A DNA stretch of 64,000 nt, from the NCBI GenBank assembly GCA_017608345.1, contig JAFCGA010000002.1, positions 79,023 to 143,022 of the forward strand. Direction: 5' to 3'. Position numbers and translations under genes: made by a program. The DNA is from Candidatus Pacearchaeota archaeon (GTDB taxonomy: Archaea > Nanobdellota > Nanobdellia > UBA10117 > JAFCGA01). Each line of letters opens with the position of its first letter. Positions within the stretch are counted from its first letter, which is position 1. The notes beneath the pieces are model-generated. The model was not told the origin of the DNA. It was given only the letters and a program-made list of their open reading frames with translations, and made no database searches. Shown here one piece after another: positions 985-53,458 of the stretch.

Positions 985-1310
985 AGTAGCGAGACTATAA
1001 GCCGCCTTATGTTCTGCTCCGTGGTCGGACAGCAGACGCAAGCATTCTACTTAGCGGTCTAGGACCTTGCACTCACTCGAATCGACAAGTTTCACTCACA
1101 ACTCAGCAACCTCACCGAGGATCATCGTGCGCTAAGCATGATTGCTTTCTGTCTATATCGATTTACAGTATTAACCATAGCTAGATTTCCTAGCCGAGCT
1201 GCCTTTTCTTTCACTCCGAGAAGCGAAATCATTAGGGCGTAAGAGGGCGGACTTTCCTCAGTGCTTTGGAGATTAATCCAAGAACTCCGATAGCTTGCCG
1301 TCCCGCTACT
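985..1310 (-). ncRNA. rnpB: RNase P RNA
   Basis: The minus-strand reading contains GAGGAAAGTCCGCCC (CR-I) and GCAGAACATAAGGCGGCTTATAG (CR-IV/V-like). The termini AGTAGCGGGAC and GTCTCGCTACT pair as P1. Confidence 0.85.
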
Positions 1311-6661: not shown

Positions 6662-6846
6662 TGGACCCGGAGGGATTTTCAAGCTACAAAGTTGCCGAAG
6701 GTATATTCGGAGCGACGAAGTCGCGTAGTAAAATACCTTTTCTTTGGGCTACCTTACACCTTTCTTTTTCTAAAAGAAAGGGGCAGTTTGAACCCCCAGC
6801 CTCCTGCATGCAAAGCAGGCGTTCTACCGGGTTGAACTACAGGCCC
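6662..6846 (-). tRNA. tRNA-Ala(UGC) in the 16S-23S spacer, with an inferred 111-nt insertion (about 6676-6786) in the T-loop
   Basis: The sense strand reads GGGCCTG TA GTTC..GAAC G CCTGC TT TGC AT GCAGG AGGCT GGGGG TTCAAA [111 nt] T CCCTC CGGGTCC A. The acceptor closes with the G3:U70 Ala identity pair. Confidence 0.8.
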
Positions 6847-6964
6847 ATAGTTTTAAGACAGATTGGTCGATTTATAAGGTTTTTCTTTGGGCCACTTATC
6901 GCGAACCGAAGTTCGCGATCTGTTCGTCCGCGTACGCTTGGAATTAGCGTACAAACATGAGTAT

Positions 6965-6981
6965 AAGTAGATGAATAGCTT
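6965..6981. repeat. 3'-flank arm of the 16S processing stem (pairs with 8730-8745)
   Basis: aagtagatgaatagctt versus aagctattcatctact form 16 complementary bp bracketing the 16S gene. Confidence 0.75.
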
Positions 6982-7653
6982 AACCTTCTTTGAGTATTAA
7001 TCAGGATACTTGCAAGCAAGTATCCTGATTTTAAAAGGAGGTGATCCATCTGCAGGTTCCCCTACAGATACCTTGTGTTGACTTCGCCCGCCTCGCTGAA
7101 CCAGGATTCGACTTAACCAAGAAGTTGAGCCTCATCCCAACCCAACTCGGTTGGCGTGACAGGCAGTGTGTGCAAGGGCCAGGGACACATTCACCGCACG
7201 ATGCTAACGCACGATTACTAGGGATTTCGTTTTCACGAGGGTGAGTTGCAACCCTCGATTCGAAAAGATTGAATTTAAGGGATTGGCTTCTCCTTTCGGA
7301 GTTGCAGCCCGTTGTTTCAACCATTGCTTGCCGCGTGTAGCCCAGAGGATTCGAGGCATACTGACCTACCGTAGCCTACACCTTCCTCTCCCTTTCGAGA
7401 GCAGTCCCTTCAGTGTGCTTATTCTCAATGAGAATAGTGGCAACTGAAAGCGTAGGTCTCGCTCGTTGTCTGACTTAACAGAACACCTCACGGCACGAGC
7501 TGACGGCGGCCATGCACCATCTCTCAGCGCGTCGAGTGAGCCATTCAGGCTGACCTTCATTCTGCTGTCGCTTCTGGTAAGGTTCCGGGCGTATAATCCA
7601 ATTGAACCGCAGCACCCACCCCTTGTGGTAGCCCCCCGCCAATTCCTTTAAGT

Positions 7654-7698
7654 ATACTGTAGCTACATTTCTCTAATATTTGTAAGAAAATATAGCAA
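7654..7698 (-). other. 16S insertion 1 (45 nt, putative intron) splitting GGCTGAA | ACTTAAAGGAATTGG
   Basis: The conserved block is contiguous in ordinary archaeal 16S but interrupted here. Boundary is +/-2 nt. Confidence 0.7.
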
Positions 7699-7817
7699 TT
7701 CAGCCTTGCGACCGTACTCCCCAGGTGGCCTGCTTAACGACTTCTCTCCGACACTGCATGCTCACGAAGAACATGCAGCACCTAGCAGGCAGCGTTTACG
7801 GCTAGGACTACGAGGGT

Positions 7818-7882
7818 TATTAGGGCTCTGGAAAATAGTTTTCTTTTTCCAGGGTTTTTCTTTTTAAAAAAAGAAAAAGCCT
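7818..7882 (-). other. 16S insertion 2 (65 nt, putative intron) splitting GGATTAGAT | ACCCTCGTAGTCC
   Basis: The interrupted block is the 785-806 'universal primer' region. The insert folds into two hairpins: TTTTTCTTTTT/AAAAAGAAAAA and CTGGAAAA/TTTTCCAG. Confidence 0.75.
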
Positions 7883-7980
7883 ATCTAATCCTCTTTGATC
7901 CCCTAGCTTTCATCCCTGACCGTCAGACCCGTTCTAGTTAGACGCCTTCGCCGCTGGCGGTCCTCTGGGGATTAAAACAA

Positions 7981-8071
7981 TGTAACTGCACTTTTTCGCT
8001 GCTTTGCAGCAAGTAAAGTAGTTTCTTTTGGGCTACCTTACACCTTTTCTTTCCTAAAGAAAAGGGGCAGT
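7981..8071 (-). other. 16S insertion 3 (about 91 nt, putative intron) splitting GAGCGGTAAAA | TTGTTTTAATCCCCAGAGGACC
   Basis: It interrupts the conserved GGTAAAATCCTGTAATCC-type block and carries a module shared with the tRNA-Ala insertion. Confidence 0.7.
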
Positions 8072-8235
8072 TTTTACCGCTCCCCCCAGAATACCTCTAA
8101 CTCCTCCCGGTCTCAAGCTAAGCAGTATTTTCAGCACGCCTGACAGTTGAGCTGCCAGATTTCACTAAAGACTTACTTAGCCGGCTACGGATGCTTTAGA
8201 CCCAATAAACGTGACCACCACTAAGGGCGCCGGGA

Positions 8236-8729: not shown

Positions 8730-8745
8730 AAGCTATTCATCTACT
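8730..8745. repeat. 5'-flank arm of the 16S processing stem
   Basis: See 6965-6981. Confidence 0.75.
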
Positions 8746-8850: not shown

Positions 8851-8891
8851 TATTGAATGCCGCAGATTTAGTAATTTGCAATTTAATTAGG

Positions 8892-8920
8892 GGTCTGACT
8901 GAAGGCGTATTTTGGTTATT
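8892..8920. repeat. 29-nt direct repeat, copy 1 (ggtctgactgaaggcgtattttggttatt)
   Basis: Exact second copy at 9010-9038, 118 bp apart. Confidence 0.9.
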
Positions 8921-9009
8921 GAACGTCGCGGGATTAATACTTTGCATTTTAATGCGGTGTTCAATTCCAAATCGCCGTTGGACCAATAATACCTAGCACT
9001 TTAGTGCTA

Positions 9010-9038
9010 GGTCTGACTGAAGGCGTATTTTGGTTATT
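9010..9038. repeat. 29-nt direct repeat, copy 2; overlaps the stop codon of the antiporter gene
   Basis: Identical to 8892-8920. Confidence 0.9.
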
Positions 9039-10498: not shown

Positions 10499-10641
10499 TG
10501 CAGGGGACAGGGTTCGAACCTGCGTAGGCACTAAGCCACTGGGTCCTAAACCCAGCCCGTTCAATCGCAACCAACGCTAAGCTATCTTCTTTCCGCCAGC
10601 GCTTTCTTAAAGGGCTGCTTTGACCACTCCGGCACCCCTGC
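10499..10641 (-). tRNA. tRNA-Leu(UAG) with an inferred 57-nt insertion (about 10561-10617) in the D-loop
   Basis: GCAGGGG TG CCG GAGTGGTCAAAG [57 nt] A CGG G CTGGG TT TAG GA CCCAG, followed by a long variable arm, GCAGG TTCGAAC CCTGT CCCCTGC A. Confidence 0.75.
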
Positions 10642-10679: not shown

Positions 10680-11024
10680 CTATAAGTATGCATTGATATA
10701 TGGGCCGATTTTTGTTTTTAATATTCTAATTGCGTTATCTATATTCTCAATCTCTACTCTGTTTTCAGTAAGTTGGAGCTGTGATTGAAGCTCTAAGTAT
10801 GCTCTGTTTATGTGTGGGCATGCAGTCTGTATGTATTCGGCAATCGGAGAATCTCCAATGAATGTTTTAAATAGCGCGAACATCAAGTCACGAGTTCTCT
10901 CCTCAAGAAACCCTTCATTTTTTCTAGCGACTTTTAATTTATTAGTTAACGTGAGATTACAGAACTGACCATCTACCATCACTATTCCGAAACCAATTGG
11001 TTTTTCTAAGGGAGTTAAGGGCAT
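10680..11024 (-). CDS. Hypothetical protein
   Basis: ORF only. Confidence 0.4.
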   Translation of the reverse strand: MPLTPLEKPIGFGIVMVDGQFCNLTLTNKLKVARKNEGFLEERTRDLMFALFKTFIGDSPIAEYIQTACPHINRAYLELQSQLQLTENRVEIENIDNAIRILKTKIGPYINAYL

Positions 11025-11081
11025 AACATCGCTAGGGTGTTATAGCTTATAATTATTTAGATAATAAAAGCGATAGTAGAA

Positions 11082-11201
11082 TTATTTCTTCTTCTGTCTA
11101 CGCAGTCTCTTTTTCTTATTAAGCTTCTTTCTGTACCACTTCCAGCGTCCTCGATAGCCAGACTTGTTCTTCTTTTTCCACTTCCGAGAGGATCTTTTCA
11201 T
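11082..11201 (-). CDS. Possible very basic 39-aa protein (MKRSSRKWKKKNKSGYRGRWKWYRKKLNKKKRLRRQKKK)
   Basis: Below the ORF-track cut-off. It fills an otherwise empty 250-nt gap. The composition recalls tiny ribosomal proteins, but I do not recognise the family. Confidence 0.3.
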   Translation of the reverse strand: MKRSSRKWKKKNKSGYRGRWKWYRKKLNKKKRLRRQKKK

Positions 11202-11273
11202 AGTTTTTATTTTGCGTAAGGAACGCTACTTATATCTCCGGCAGAGAGTTTTATAAAGATTTTGCTAAAAATC

Positions 11274-12192: not shown

Positions 12193-13896
12193 TTACATCT
12201 CCGCAACTTCTTCAATTCCGAGCAAATTCAAAGCATTTTTTAGCGTATGAGCAAATGCCTTCACAAGAGCTAACCTTGCTCCCTGTAACTTCTTTTCAGC
12301 TCGAATTACTGGACAATTCTCATAAAAGCTAGAAAACAGTTGCGCTAGTTCGTAGGCGTAATTCGCAACCAACTGCGGCGAATAAGAATCAGCTGCTTTT
12401 TCAACAATTTCCGGAAAAAGAGCTATCTTTTTGACTAGCTCAAATTCATAGGGTTTAACTAATAATTCTAAGCTTGCTTTGCTTGGTTTTGCTTCTGATT
12501 TTTGCAAGATTTTGTTAGATCTTACTAATGCATACTGTAAATATGGTCCAGTGTTGCCTTCTAACGAAAGAACTTCGTCCCAATTAAAGCTAATCTGTTT
12601 GGTTGGAGAAACCCGAAGTTCGAAATATCTTATTGCTCCAACAGCGATTTTCTCAGCTAGTTTTAGCGGAGTTTTCTTTTTAGAGATTATTTTTTCTATC
12701 CCTTCATCTAGAATAGCGTCGGCCGGTAGCGTTGTTCCTGATCGAGTTGAGATCTTAACTTTATCGAAATTAACAAAAGATAAGAAAACAACATCGAGGG
12801 TCTTTGATTTTAGTATTCCAAAAATCTCGAGGAGTTTCTTAAGCTCAACAGCTTCGATTTTATGGTCTTCTCCTAGTACGATTATGTTCTTATCAGCAAG
12901 GCTTAGCTTATATTTATGATACGCTAGATCTCTAGTAATATAAACTGATGTTCCATTAGCTCTCAAAAATACAGTTCCTCCGCCCCTACGCTCGAATCCG
13001 TATTTGCTTAGATCCACAGCATGAGCGCCTTCTTCTAATATTTTATATTCGGGTAAGGCCTTTAGTTTATTAGCTATTTTCTTTTGCTCACCTGCTGCTA
13101 CAAGATCGCTTTCAAAGTCGAACTCATCAAAATTTATTCCAAATCGAGCAAGCATCTTTTTCTGTCCTTCCAGGCAAGTTTTGGCAACTTTGTTTAGCTC
13201 TGAAGCGTATTGCTTATTATTTTCTGCTGCGATTAAGAAATCATCAATTTCTTTCATTAGTTTCGGATTTTTCTCAACCAGCTTCATTGCGGTGACATAA
13301 ACGAACATAATTTTGAAGTCTGGGTTGTTCTTATATTTAGAGAATTTCTTAATCAGCGACGCAGAAGTTTTAATTTTATTTTTTATTCCCCAGTTGATTA
13401 TCGCGATTTGCTTGCCCATATCATTGACATAGTAATGCGTTTCTACATTGTAGCCGATTGCTTTGTATAATCTTACTAACGTATCTCCTATGAAAGAATT
13501 TCTTATACGTCCGACATGAGTTGGTCCGGAGGGATTAGTTGAAGTATGCTCGATTATTAATTTCTTGTTCTTCCCCTTATTTGATTTTCCGTAATTCTTG
13601 CTAACTTGTTTGAGTATTTCTGCAGCATATTTGCCTTCATCAACAAAGAAATTCAAATAAGGTCCGGCAATTTCTACTTTTTTAAAAATAGAGCTTTTCG
13701 GAATTGCTAGCTTTTTTCTTATTTGCATAGCAATCTCGCCCGGATTTTTCTTTAGCTTCTTAGATAAAATAAAGCAAGGGAAAGCTAAGTCTCCTAATTT
13801 TGAGTCAGGTGGGATCTCGATTAAATTTATGATCTGATTCTTGTTCAGCGAAATTAGCTTGCTTAGAATGCTAGCTGCTTGGGATTTGATATCCAT
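12193..13896 (-). CDS. argS: Arginine--tRNA ligase
   Basis: HTSTNPSGPTHVGRIRN, DLAYH, and the C-terminal anticodon-binding domain ending ..EVAEM. Confidence 0.9.
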   Translation of the reverse strand: MDIKSQAASILSKLISLNKNQIINLIEIPPDSKLGDLAFPCFILSKKLKKNPGEIAMQIRKKLAIPKSSIFKKVEIAGPYLNFFVDEGKYAAEILKQVSKNYGKSNKGKNKKLIIEHTSTNPSGPTHVGRIRNSFIGDTLVRLYKAIGYNVETHYYVNDMGKQIAIINWGIKNKIKTSASLIKKFSKYKNNPDFKIMFVYVTAMKLVEKNPKLMKEIDDFLIAAENNKQYASELNKVAKTCLEGQKKMLARFGINFDEFDFESDLVAAGEQKKIANKLKALPEYKILEEGAHAVDLSKYGFERRGGGTVFLRANGTSVYITRDLAYHKYKLSLADKNIIVLGEDHKIEAVELKKLLEIFGILKSKTLDVVFLSFVNFDKVKISTRSGTTLPADAILDEGIEKIISKKKTPLKLAEKIAVGAIRYFELRVSPTKQISFNWDEVLSLEGNTGPYLQYALVRSNKILQKSEAKPSKASLELLVKPYEFELVKKIALFPEIVEKAADSYSPQLVANYAYELAQLFSSFYENCPVIRAEKKLQGARLALVKAFAHTLKNALNLLGIEEVAEM

Positions 13897-13934: not shown

Positions 13935-15083
13935 TTAGAACTTAAATCTCTTAATCTCAGCTCGCTTGATACTATCGCTAATTAGCATTTTCTGGCGCTT
14001 AATATTCTTTTCAATCGTTTCAATTTCGCTAAGCTTAGCTCTAGTTTCAGGATGCTTAGCAATCATAAATGAGCAGCAATCTGGATAGGGTTGAATAGAA
14101 TATTCATAAGTTCCAATTTTCTTTGCGATATCAACAATTTCTTCCTTGTTCATGCCAATCAGAGGAGCAAGAATTGGTAATTCTGCGGCAGAATAAATGC
14201 AGGTTATATTCTCAATTGTCTGTGAAGCGACCTGCCCGATGCTATCTCCCGTAATGATTCCTTTAATCTTTTCAGTCTTAGATATTTCATTGATTATTTT
14301 CATCATGAAGCGCCGATAAATTATCATTCTGAATTTTGCAGGAACATTTGCAATTATTTCTTGCTGGATTTTCTCAAAAGGAACAATGTAAATCTTCGAA
14401 TTTAGTTGGAATTTAGTTAGCTGTTTAACTAGATCATCCAGCTTTGATAAAATCCCTCTGCTAACTGTTGTGTTATGAACGTGCACGAAAACGATTTCGC
14501 AGCCGCGCTTCATTAGCAGAAATGCGCTTACTGGACTGTCTATTCCGCCGGATAGCGAGCAAGCTATTTTGCCGCTAACGCCAACAGGTAATCCGCTAAC
14601 TCCTTGATATTTCTTGCAGAAAAGTAGTGCTTCTTTCTCACCAATTTCAATATAGAGTCTCAGCTCCGGAGTCTTAACGTCCACTTTTTTCTTTAATTTC
14701 GTTATGATATGATCGCCCAGCTCGCAATTTAATTGCTGTGAAGTTAGTTTGAATTTCTTATTAGATCTTTTTGTATCTACCTTGAATGTTTTGAATTTCT
14801 CTTCTTTCAAGAGTTTAATTGAATCAGCTTTAATTGATTTTAGATCTAAAGTTGTCTTAACAGCGAAGGAGAAATTAGCTATCCCTGGCAGTCTTTCTAG
14901 AATTTGTTTTATTTTTTCGAGACCCTCTTTTTTATCTAGCTCACAGATTATTCTTCCATAGCGTCGGTAAGCTTCTTTTTCGATAGCTTTGTTAATATTT
15001 TTAACAAGTCGATTTTCAAAAAAAGCTCTATTCTTACCTTTAGTTCCGATCTCGCTGTAATGAATTACTATACTGTTGTACAT
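13935..15083 (-). CDS. thiI: tRNA 4-thiouridine synthase ThiI (THUMP + PP-loop)
   Basis: SGGIDS PP-loop with an N-terminal ferredoxin-like/THUMP region. Confidence 0.85.
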   Translation of the reverse strand: MYNSIVIHYSEIGTKGKNRAFFENRLVKNINKAIEKEAYRRYGRIICELDKKEGLEKIKQILERLPGIANFSFAVKTTLDLKSIKADSIKLLKEEKFKTFKVDTKRSNKKFKLTSQQLNCELGDHIITKLKKKVDVKTPELRLYIEIGEKEALLFCKKYQGVSGLPVGVSGKIACSLSGGIDSPVSAFLLMKRGCEIVFVHVHNTTVSRGILSKLDDLVKQLTKFQLNSKIYIVPFEKIQQEIIANVPAKFRMIIYRRFMMKIINEISKTEKIKGIITGDSIGQVASQTIENITCIYSAAELPILAPLIGMNKEEIVDIAKKIGTYEYSIQPYPDCCSFMIAKHPETRAKLSEIETIEKNIKRQKMLISDSIKRAEIKRFKF

Positions 15084-16827: not shown

Positions 16828-16947
16828 TGCCCCCAGCGGGATTTACCTCGAACGTACCGTTCGTATAAATGCTCGTCACGCTCGCATTTGAACCCACGTC
16901 ACTGGCTTGAAAGGCCAGCATGCTTGGCCGGGCTACACTATGGGGGC
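16828..16947 (-). tRNA. tRNA-Glu(UUC) with an inferred 45-nt insertion in the T-loop
   Basis: GCCCCCA TA GTGT..GCAT G CTGGC CT TTC AA GCCAG TGAC GTGGG TTCAAAT [45 nt ending GGTAAAT] CCCGC TGGGGGC A. Confidence 0.75.
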
Positions 16948-17805: not shown

Positions 17806-17981
17806 TGGCCGAGATGAGATTTGAATTCGTGCACCAATTCCAGTTTAAGGGAAAGGGCGGCTCACGACCTCTGGTTGGCTTAAACGCATCGTAGCCGATG
17901 CGTGTCATATAAGACCAGCGCTCTAACCAGATTACTCACTTTCTCTTTTTCTAAAAGAGAAAAGCTCTAAGCTACTCGGCC
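17806..17981 (-). tRNA. tRNA-Ile(UAU) with three inferred insertions: D-loop 17931-17965, canonical 37/38 site 17877-17907, T-stem/T-loop junction 17826-17860
   Basis: Exons of 16+23+16+20 nt assemble into a 75-nt cloverleaf: GGCCGAG TA GCTT AGACTGGTTA GAGC G CTGGT CTTATAA ACCAG AGGTC GTGAG TTCAAAT CTCAT CTCGGCC A. At the 37/38 insertion, CTTA/TAAG forms the 4-bp helix of a bulge-helix-bulge (BHB) splice motif. Confidence 0.7.
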
Positions 17982-17984
17982 AAG

Positions 17985-18214
17985 CGCCCGTGGTCAGATT
18001 TTCTAAAGCCTGGGAACCAAGGTTCCCTTCTTTCTTCCAGAGAGAAATCCCCGAGATTTCTCTTGGCCACGCGAAACTTAACGAGTTTCGCTTGGTTTCC
18101 CGAGGGTTTTTCTTTCTTCGGGAAGAAAGAAAAAGGCTCTTTGAACTGACGGCCTCACGGTTTCTAACATAAGGCTAACAGCCGTGCGCTATAACCAGAC
18201 TAAGCTACACGGGC
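17985..18214 (-). tRNA. tRNA-Asn(GUU) with an inferred 14-nt anticodon-loop insertion (18162-18175) and a 141-nt T-loop insertion (17999-18139)
   Basis: GCCCGTG TA GCTT..AGC G CACGG CT GTT A [14] A CCGTG AGGCC GTCAG TTCAAA [141] T CTGAC CACGGGC G. It lies only 3 nt upstream of the tRNA-Ile 5' end. Confidence 0.65.
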
Positions 18215-52577: not shown

Positions 52578-52669
52578 TAATATGAAAATACAACGGCTCA
52601 AATGAAACAAGAATTATATTTAACGCATCTGGAGTCAGGGCTAAATGCCTTTCTCTTTTGGATGCCTAG

Positions 52670-52693
52670 TTTTCTCTTTCGCGAAAGAGAAAA
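52670..52693 (+). promoter_or_regulatory. Perfect 24-nt palindrome TTTTCTCTTTCGCGAAAGAGAAAA abutting the scpA ATG
   Basis: 12-bp stem. It has the same arm sequence type as the tRNA/rRNA insertion hairpins. Confidence 0.5.
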
Positions 52694-53458
52694 ATGGCGA
52701 TGACAAAACAACTATACGAAGCAATCTTTGATGAGAACAATATCAAATGGCGGTCTCTAATTTATGAGATGGTTAGATCTGGGAAGATAGACCCGTGGGA
52801 TATTGATCTGACGCACTTTACTAAAGAGTATATGAATATGATCCATAAACTAAAAGAGCTGAACTTTAGAGTTTCTGGAAAAGTTGTGCTTGCTGCAGCT
52901 ATTCTTCTTAAGTTAAAGACTAACGGTCTCCGACTAAACGAATTTTTGTCTATGACTGAAGAAGAGCCAGACTATGCAATTGATGTCGAAGAAGATGAGG
53001 AACAATTTATGGACGAAGATGAGCAAAAGCTGGTGAAGCTAGCTAAACATATTGAACATAACAAAAAGAAAGAGTACAAGCTCGAGCCGAACATTTACGG
53101 AGAGCGAACTCGGAAGGTTACTGTTTTTGAATTAGTTGGCGCGCTTAAGAAAGCTCTTGAGGTTGACGAGCGAAGAAAAACTCGAGAAATTGAGCAGGTC
53201 GAAGCGCCAAAACTTATGCAATACAAAGTCAAGATGGTCGATATTGTTGAGAAGATGATTGAAGTTTTTGAAAGGTTAAGTAATCACCTATTAAAGCACC
53301 GCAGGAACAGGGTCCATTTTAGTAAAATAGTTCCTAGTGAAGAAAAGAAGGATCGGATTTGGACCTTTGTTCCGCTTTTACATTTAGCTAATGATGGTAA
53401 AGTCTTCTTACATCAAGATAAACCTTTTGGAGATTTGTTTGTGGAGGTGAAGACGTGA
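52694..53458 (+). CDS. scpA: Segregation and condensation protein A (kleisin)
   Basis: ..KIDPWDIDL...; position after smc and overlap with scpB. Confidence 0.8.
   Translation: MAMTKQLYEAIFDENNIKWRSLIYEMVRSGKIDPWDIDLTHFTKEYMNMIHKLKELNFRVSGKVVLAAAILLKLKTNGLRLNEFLSMTEEEPDYAIDVEEDEEQFMDEDEQKLVKLAKHIEHNKKKEYKLEPNIYGERTRKVTVFELVGALKKALEVDERRKTREIEQVEAPKLMQYKVKMVDIVEKMIEVFERLSNHLLKHRRNRVHFSKIVPSEEKKDRIWTFVPLLHLANDGKVFLHQDKPFGDLFVEVKT

Follow-up and report, generated by a model that had tools for sequence, protein, structure and literature searches.

Shared hairpin cassette in putative bulge-helix-bulge introns of the tRNA-Ala and 16S rRNA genes of one archaeal rRNA operon

A 64-kb stretch of contig JAFCGA010000002.1 (hereafter the window) carries on its minus strand an archaeal rRNA operon in which the tRNA-Ala and 16S rRNA genes are interrupted by insertions that begin with the same hairpin module. 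The operon comprises the 16S gene (8698 to 7036), a tRNA-Ala(UGC) gene in the 16S-23S spacer (6662–6846) and the 23S gene (6543 to 3609). The 16S gene (Rfam RF01959, 1322.8 bits over a 1478-position model) is 1663 nt long, or 1461 nt without its three insertions, which measure 92 nt in the apical loop of helix 23 (7980–8071), 65 nt in the helix-24 (790) loop (7818–7882) and 45 nt at 7654–7698, all on the minus strand. From our own alignment we take these sites to be E. coli positions of about 696/697, 793 and 908, respectively. The tRNA-Ala gene, the only one of the operon, has intact exons (exon 1, 6846 to 6787; exon 2, 6675 to 6662) and the G3:U70 pair, and is split at T-loop position 59/60 by an insertion of 111 nt (6676–6786, minus strand). 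The unspliced gene gave partial Rfam and ARAGORN matches, and its hand-spliced 74-nt product was called tRNA-Ala by ARAGORN. The host appears to be a Woesearchaeota-like DPANN archaeon, because homologues of the neighboring Na+/H+ antiporter are labelled Candidatus Woesearchaeota and the order of the genes for ArgRS, Topo VI, eIF-1A and NMD3 is that of Woesearchaeota contigs; G+C is 39%.

The helix-23 and tRNA-Ala insertions are related over their 5′ portions. Plus-strand positions 6737–6786 and 8021–8070 align end to end, as the original prediction had it, and do so without gaps, with 42 of 50 positions identical (84%); the strings quoted with that prediction are all in place. The alignment includes an exact 21-mer, TTTGGGCTACCTTACACCTTT (plus-strand 6743–6763 and 8027–8047), which has no other site in the window even with up to 3 mismatches (shuffle expectation 0.00). 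Searching the window by blastn with either whole insertion retrieved the other (88% over 51 nt, E of 4–5e-12), and an nhmmer profile returned both copies with E of about 2e-17. The score of the pair (z = 25.6) was the highest among 19 intron and trailer sequences compared. In RNA sense each copy begins its insertion, the junctions reading ...UUCAAA|CUGCCCC in tRNA-Ala and ...GGUAAAA|ACUGCCCC in 16S, and the two host genes lie 1.2 kb apart on the same strand. Identity so far above chance argues for common descent by copying and against independent expansion, as had been proposed.

Both copies have the same architecture, a short GC clamp followed by two hairpins. Copy 1 (6724–6788, minus strand) consists of the clamp CUGCC, hairpin 1 (6781 to 6759, CCUUUCUUUU/AAAAGAAAGG) and hairpin 2 (6757 to 6728, GUAAGGUA...UAUUUUAC with loop CCCAAAGAAAA); copy 2 (8010–8072, minus strand) has the same clamp, hairpin 1 at 8065 to 8043 and hairpin 2 at 8041 to 8013. 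Hairpin 1 is a polypyrimidine/polypurine (Y/R) hairpin with a perfect 10-bp stem in both copies. Its arms had been described as differing by indels while still pairing; the pairing holds, and the differences are ungapped substitutions. Of the eight differences between the copies, four fall in this stem, where they make up two compensatory changes, one from C-G to U-A and the other from U-A to C-G, which is how the stem stays perfect in both. Hairpin 2 reads GUAAGGUAG, loop CCCAAAGAA, then YUAYUUUAC, and because the similarity continues past the 50-mers through its 3′ arm (TAYTTTACT) we set the length of the module at about 60–65 nt. Beyond this point the two insertions diverge and their similarity is not significant, with 388 of 2000 shuffles scoring as high. 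Each continues with a private 5-bp GC hairpin with a 3-nt loop (GCGAC-UUC-GUCGC and GCUGC-AAA-GCAGC, both of which fold) and then a terminal strand that pairs with the initial CUGC. Neither nhmmer --max nor an unfiltered covariance-model search of the window revealed a further whole-module copy.

A partial third copy had also been proposed at 6878–6898, in the spacer between 16S and tRNA-Ala. The sequence is present as described, within a minus-strand segment at 6873–6900 that reads GAUAAGUGG CCCAAAGAAAAA CCUUAUA, and has the hairpin-2 loop alone in common with the module. The 12-mer GCCCAAAGAAAA occurs in this segment and in copy 1 and nowhere else in the window. Whole-module searches gave it no statistical security (nhmmer E = 11, blastn E = 0.65, covariance model E of about 0.7–0.95), chance would give 0.11 matches per window for an 18-mer allowed up to 3 mismatches, and the segment folds poorly as a hairpin (−1.2 kcal/mol). 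We regard a third copy at this position as possible but unproven.

Several features mark the insertions as probable introns of the bulge-helix-bulge (BHB) type. In the BHB motif, a 4-bp helix sets the cleavage sites, each cut lying 2 nt downstream of the helix, on both strands, within a 3-nt bulge that an outer helix borders. Our ruler test asked whether a 4-bp helix stands in just that register which would yield the mature sequence expected from homology, which has a chance of 1.7% per register; it first fitted the three 16S insertions and those in tRNA-Ala and tRNA-Leu. Over the 11 BHB-type introns that we count in the window (3 in 16S and 8 in five tRNAs), all four pairs of the central helix were present in 8, and three of four in the other 3. 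For tRNA-Ala, four of four pairs were in the register that gives UUCAAA^UCCCUC, and the minimum free energy fold stacks the T-stem GGGGG:CCCUC, an AAU bulge, UUCA(A):(U)UGAA, a 1x1 loop and the closing stem CUGC:GUAG. The helix-23 insertion, which aligns to the Rfam model as a 93-nt insert at model position 636/637 and was confirmed by a MAFFT alignment with the intron-less 16S of L012, also scored four of four. Its junctions are GAGCG|GUAA|AA^A|CUGC on the 5′ strand and GCAG|UUAC|AU^U|GUUU on the 3′ strand, the order being the distal helix-23 stem, a 2–3-nt bulge, GUAA:UUAC, an AAA bulge and CUGC:GCAG. The fold of its pre-rRNA context (z = −5.4) places three hairpins within the closing stem. 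The 65-nt helix-24 insertion, also of BHB type, has its own Y/R hairpin (UUUUUCUUUU/AAAAGAAAAA), and the 45-nt insertion is a mini-intron with a strict hBHBh′ motif.

The insertions interrupt universally conserved loops, namely the T-loop at 59/60, the 690 (helix-23) loop and the 790 loop of 16S. Removing the three 16S inserts, 202 nt in total and located in conserved regions relevant to universal primers, leaves helix 23 (GCGGTAAAATGT), helix 24 (GGATTAGATACCC) and the 908 region identical to those of five relatives. Neither module-bearing insertion matched any Rfam family, at the gathering threshold or at E ≤ 5, so that no group I or group II core was detected, and the 92- and 111-nt insertions hold no open reading frame (ORF) for a LAGLIDADG or other endonuclease, the only frames that cross them being long, antisense and extended over exon sequence. 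The intron-like nature proposed for both insertions thus passes these sequence-level tests, which support their assignment as archaeal BHB introns.

Relatives lack the insertions. Through homologues of the antiporter we reached the rRNA operons of five other Woesearchaeota, namely L011, L012 (with L013 and L014), L015–L018, L019 and L020; the contigs of L009 and L010, which hold the closest antiporter homologues, stop short of the operon. The 16S genes of L011, L012, L015, L019 and L020 are 82–84% identical to that of the window, and none has an insertion at any of the three 16S sites. The tRNA-Ala genes of L012 and L015 are intron-less, and that of L019 (within 10935–11260) has a different, unrelated 31-nt intron at the same 59/60 site. 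In L009, the closest relative found (antiporter 69% identical), the orthologue of tRNA-Leu(UAG) has no counterpart of the 59-nt intron of the window. Because counterparts of the 16S, tRNA-Ala and tRNA-Leu genes occur without them, the insertions are optional, lineage-specific elements. The 23S gene of L019 contains two inserts of its own, of about 340 and 910 nt (13195–13534 and 14164–15076), at positions typical of the group I introns reported from Woesearchaeota.

All five tRNAs of the window carry non-canonical introns. The tRNA-Asn(GUU) gene (18214 to 17985) is split at 37/38 and 59/60, its 141-nt T-loop intron (17999–18139) starting with GAGCC and then a 12-bp Y/R hairpin. The adjacent tRNA-Ile(UAU) gene (17981 to 17806) has three introns, in the D-loop (35 nt, 17932–17966, with the hairpin UUUCUCUUUUAGAAAAAGAGAAA), at 37/38 and at 53/54, whereas the single intron of tRNA-Glu(UUC) (gene 16947 to 16828; 45 nt at 59/60, 16842–16886) is without a Y/R hairpin. 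The tRNA-Leu(UAG) gene (10641 to 10499) has a 59-nt D-loop intron (10561–10619) that starts AGCAGCCCUUU. All these genes and introns are on the minus strand. The module covariance model led to the Asn and Ile genes (17.8–18.2 kb), and a weak Rfam tRNA match to the Glu gene (16.9 kb); ARAGORN missed all three, and in Rfam they were missed or below threshold. Hand-spliced Asn and Ile products were recognized as full tRNAs by ARAGORN, which accepted every spliced tRNA put to it, the Glu product not being among those run. Several of the non-canonical introns open with a short GC clamp and then a U-rich tract with C (CUGCCCCUUUC, GAGCCUUUUUC, AGCUUUUCUC, AGGCUUUUUC and CCGCCCUUUC, besides that of tRNA-Leu). 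Perfect Y/R hairpins of at least 10 bp number six in the window, with none in shuffles, and five of the six lie within introns, which make up about 1% of the window.

The sole perfect Y/R hairpin outside introns (UUUUCUCUUU CGCG AAAGAGAAAA, within 52643–52718) stands after an ORF and directly before the ATG of scpA, with another CCUUUCUCUUUU tract just upstream. This hairpin is possibly a terminator, or else a further cassette. That Y/R hairpins also occur after tRNA genes and before scpA led us to consider them as plain terminators, an account that we rejected for leaving their position at intron 5′ ends unexplained.

Outside the window, module-like sequences were seen in two further settings, so that the absence of further copies, which was to count against the original prediction, did not arise. 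In L015, a hairpin pair immediately 3′ of the intron-less tRNA-Ala gene (12990–13047; covariance model 18.7 bits, E = 0.02) consists of CCCUUUCUUU/AAAGAAAGG followed by CUUCUAAC, loop CCCAAAGAAC and GGUUAGAAG. Its CCCAAAGAA loop is conserved and its second stem appears fully covaried; a MAFFT alignment of the hairpin-2 instances did not put them in structural register. In L011 a Y/R hairpin (about 1200–1245) directly follows an intron-less tRNA-Leu gene. From these two positions it follows that the cassette occurs as a tRNA trailer as well as within introns. The second setting is the environmental contig L001 (Ga0209211_10188246), which keeps 24 of 24 nt of the core while its surroundings all differ. 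Here two inverted module copies, one with the tRNA-type loop variant CCCAAAGAAAA and the other with the 16S-type CCCAAAAGAAAC, bound about 415 nt of non-coding DNA (135–547); its fold is a giant branched hairpin (z = −6.0), and Rfam and tRNA searches returned no match for it. The element adjoins an orphan membrane-protein gene, for whose product a homologue search found none, and may be mobile DNA or else a structured RNA of a new type.

Large collections were scanned with exact words only, a method that diverged copies would escape. A 20-mer of the core had no match in genome contigs and an 18-mer none in viral contigs; the 18-mer gave two bacterial matches in genome contigs, judged to be chance, and six in metagenome contigs, where only L001 was real and L002–L006 were coding or chance matches. 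A neighbor search by way of a methyltransferase led to bacterial-looking contigs (SecA, sigma-70) that were irrelevant. Scans of viral contigs with a 23-mer Y/R hairpin and with a 16-mer spanning the T-loop/intron junction returned only an unrelated phage family and chance coding matches.

A further case of likeness between sites concerns tRNA-Ile. The T-loop intron of tRNA-Ile in L020 and the D-loop intron of tRNA-Ile in the window share 27 of 29 nt, including the identical 23-nt hairpin UUUCUCUUUUAGAAAAAGAGAAA, despite the roughly 84% identity of the two genomes in 16S. The 59/60 site is used more than once, in the tRNA-Asn and tRNA-Glu genes of the window, in tRNA-Ala of L019 and in tRNA-Ile of L020.

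Taken together, these data suggest that the two module-bearing insertions are homologous BHB introns in one co-transcribed operon, and that copying carried the cassette, or the intron as a whole, from one gene to the other, most likely from tRNA-Ala to 16S; we give this reading a probability of roughly 0.7. Probably one intron gave rise to the other by copying, or a common element gave rise to both. We favor the direction from tRNA to 16S because T-loop 59/60 introns with the same clamp and hairpin are widespread, the cassette lies by tRNA-Ala in a second genome and no relative has the helix-23 insertion. The target loops are alike, GGUUCAAA^U in tRNA-Ala and GGUAAAA^U in 16S, and the 3′ end of each intron is complementary to its own exon, as spliceability at a new site demands. 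In the proposed mechanism, the last bases of the intron would pair with the four exon bases upstream of the 5′ splice site (UUCA:UGAA in tRNA, GUAA:UUAC in 16S), and its first bases, CUGC, with GUAG (tRNA) or GCAG (16S) near the intron 3′ end. With the T-stem or the distal helix-23 stem of the host closing the other side, a relaxed BHB would result, in which both strands should be cut by the tRNA splicing endonuclease, 2 nt downstream of the 4-bp helix in each case. Ligation of the exons and circularization of the intron would fall to RtcB, giving predicted circle junctions of ...GUUACAU^ACUGCC for 16S and ...CUUGAAAA^CUGCC for tRNA-Ala. The module would act as a self-folding cassette just inside the closing stem, made up of the clamp, the 10-bp Y/R hairpin and the second hairpin, whose loop is CCCAAAGAA. 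Once copied, the introns would have adapted at their 3′ ends to pairing with their own exons and diverged in the remainder. The cassette may belong to a wider clamp and Y/R-hairpin family in Woesearchaeota, found in T- and D-loop introns, 16S introns and tRNA 3′ flanks. As routes of copying we consider DNA-level recombination, a MITE-like (miniature inverted-repeat transposable element) or integrative element, and RNA mis-ligation followed by reverse transcription to be candidates. Divergence is uneven and the core is exact in L001, which argues for constraint on the core at the sequence level. Antisense targets for it in 16S or 23S were not found, a 9-nt match to 23S (UAAGGUAGC) being within chance; a protein-binding or DNA-level recognition site would fit such constraint, as speculation.

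A number of points weigh against this interpretation. Both BHB motifs are relaxed: each has a single canonical 3-nt bulge, AAU at the 3′ site in tRNA-Ala and AAA at the 5′ site in helix 23, the opposite site lying in a 1x1 internal loop in tRNA-Ala and in a bulge of 2–3 nt in helix 23. Neither EndA nor RtcB was among the roughly 40 window ORFs scanned against Pfam, and excision, exon ligation and circularization of the introns are themselves predictions from sequence. Copying of the whole intron is not proven, because significant similarity spans only about the 5′ half of each. The copies differ at 16% of positions, so the copying is not very recent; "mobile", as used in the original prediction, describes a putative property. 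The Y/R hairpin alone is weak evidence of kinship, because it is of low complexity and the exact 23-mer UUUCUCUUUUAGAAAAAGAGAAA also occurs at one conserved locus of an unrelated gut-phage family, in an unrelated context (L026–L046, IMG/VR); such hairpins can therefore arise independently.

The abrupt end of significant similarity after about 60–65 nt is also what would be seen if two independently acquired introns had later exchanged their 5′ 60 nt or so, by ectopic gene conversion or recombination in the operon, which would amount to shuffling of modules and not to intron transposition. The proximity and common strand of the copies would favor such an exchange, and the two other, unrelated 16S introns show that independent acquisition happens. 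We nevertheless consider it unlikely, as the module begins exactly at the splice site in both introns, the architecture stays the same past the module (5-bp GC hairpin, 3-nt loop, closing GCAG/GUAG) and selection on a functional core, which is kept at 24 of 24 nt in L001, would explain the uneven divergence equally well. Somewhat less doubtful is the idea that the cassette is the end of a DNA-level mobile element, a MITE-like or integrative remnant targeting T-loop-like sequences, and that the introns are domesticated or decayed copies; insertions in the loops of structured RNAs would then survive only where their ends happen to form a BHB. The inverted pair bounding the giant hairpin of L001, the cassette directly after tRNA 3′ ends in L015 and L011, the repeated use of 59/60 in different tRNAs and the likeness of the two target loops all agree with it, and intron gain via a tRNA-integrating element has been proposed for Caldiarchaeum (PMC3293823). 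Yet the window copies have neither a terminal inverted repeat beyond the 4–6-bp closing stem nor a target-site duplication, no transposase or integrase was seen near them, the L001-type element is single, with a neighbor protein that lacks homologues, and scanning genome and metagenome collections for the exact core turned up no other genuine match. The odds are accordingly still against it.

If the insertions were not spliced at all, they would be retained expansion segments, or would be cut without religation to leave a fragmented 16S rRNA and a non-functional tRNA-Ala. The relaxed motifs and the lack of an EndA gene among the ORFs scanned would suit this; the sites, however, are conserved functional loops (T, 690 and 790) that, without the inserts, match those of the relatives, all 11 insertions fit the ruler register and the exons of the only tRNA-Ala of the operon are intact, which makes non-splicing very improbable. 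Still harder to credit is an assembly artefact or a chance or convergent similarity. The contig is evidently assembled from a metagenome, and rRNA operons are prone to misassembly, but 8 of 50 positions distinguish the copies, in a compensatory pattern, the exon sequence on either side of each copy is correct to the base, and the chance expectation is about 0.

Homologous BHB introns in a tRNA and an rRNA gene would extend what is already known, which includes BHB introns, non-canonical tRNA sites, transposition of introns from tRNA to tRNA and BHB introns in rRNA (PMC4090602, PMC4496867, PMC6125680). Position 59/60 is a known non-canonical archaeal tRNA intron site (PMC4090602), and Thermoproteales provide documented cases of tRNA-to-tRNA transposition (Sugahara 2008 and Fujishima 2010, as summarized in PMC4090602). 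In that summary the Thermoproteales introns resemble those described here in being short, ORF-less, bounded by BHB or relaxed BHB motifs and located at non-canonical sites including 59/60, and in that closely similar introns in unrelated host genes point to transposition limited by the need for a BHB. Here, unlike there, one partner is a 16S gene, the host is a DPANN archaeon and not a crenarchaeote, the similarity is confined to a 5′ cassette, and copies of the cassette are also seen away from introns, in the 3′ trailer of a tRNA and in a non-coding inverted pair. Our two introns have 84% identity over the first 50 nt and about 60–65 alignable nt, their downstream halves not being significantly similar. 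The transposed group of Fujishima 2010 reportedly unites introns of more than 70% similarity in evolutionarily distinct host genes.

For rRNA, the account in PMC4496867 describes Thermoproteales 16S introns that are likewise BHB-bounded and set in conserved regions, with some ORF-less mini-introns, including short hairpin-only ones; locus 908, a known archaeal 16S intron site, is common to both, and sites 696 and 793 (approximate, in our own numbering) are not among the 8 of the 13 Thermoproteales 16S loci compared. The same paper regards a homing endonuclease as necessary for the spread of rRNA introns, and none lies within or adjacent to the introns of the window. BHB introns occur in Woesearchaeota rRNA (PMC6125680), as do group I introns with homing endonucleases, which are likewise insertions in rRNA genes (PMC6125680); those of the window differ in being 45–141 nt long, without Rfam match or ORF, and of BHB type rather than self-splicing. 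A DPANN EndA with an L3 loop has been associated with disrupted tRNAs (PMC5829648). Proposals that tie tRNA introns to DNA mobile elements targeting tRNA genes fit a cassette found in T-loops and after tRNA 3′ ends, although no recombinase gene or full-length element was seen here and the elements measure only about 60–415 nt. A full-text literature search brought up no account of sequence shared by an intron in tRNA and one in rRNA, an absence that applies to the literature searched.

The sequence shared by tRNA-Ala and 16S suggests that protein-spliced introns can be copied from a tRNA gene to an rRNA gene. Transposition of ORF-less BHB introns between tRNA genes has so far been deduced only from Thermoproteales sequence families. 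The cassette points to tRNA and rRNA introns as a single evolutionary pool and to rRNA mini-introns that arise without a homing endonuclease, and DPANN archaea, very rich in introns (11 in this 64-kb window), offer a good system in which to study the mechanism. In practical terms, standard tRNA finders overlook three of the five tRNAs, and the 202 nt of 16S inserts lie at universal-primer sites. Beyond this we advance, tentatively and expecting it to be wrong sooner than right, the proposal that Woesearchaeota carry small non-autonomous mobile cassettes (GC clamp, Y/R hairpin and second hairpin) that insert into T-loop-like loops and tRNA 3′ flanks and persist where the splicing endonuclease reads their ends as a BHB. 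Were this so, the present pair would be a caught-in-the-act origin of ORF-less rRNA mini-introns from tRNA introns, and BHB introns in general would be domesticated remnants of transposons.

Some other features of the operon and its surroundings were noted. The 16S flanks contain a perfect 16-bp complementarity (8730–8745 with 6966–6981), the expected processing stem of pre-16S rRNA. Downstream of the operon lies a gene for RNase P RNA (985–1310, minus strand; 69.7 bits against an Rfam gathering threshold of 84), which has a 35-nt extra helix segment relative to its L012 orthologue that has no relation to the module. A 52-nt direct repeat (8869–8920 and 8987–9038; spacing 118 nt; 81% identical, 29 nt exact) precedes the 16S 5′ end, reaches into the 3′ end of the antiporter gene and may represent tandem rRNA promoters or leader elements.

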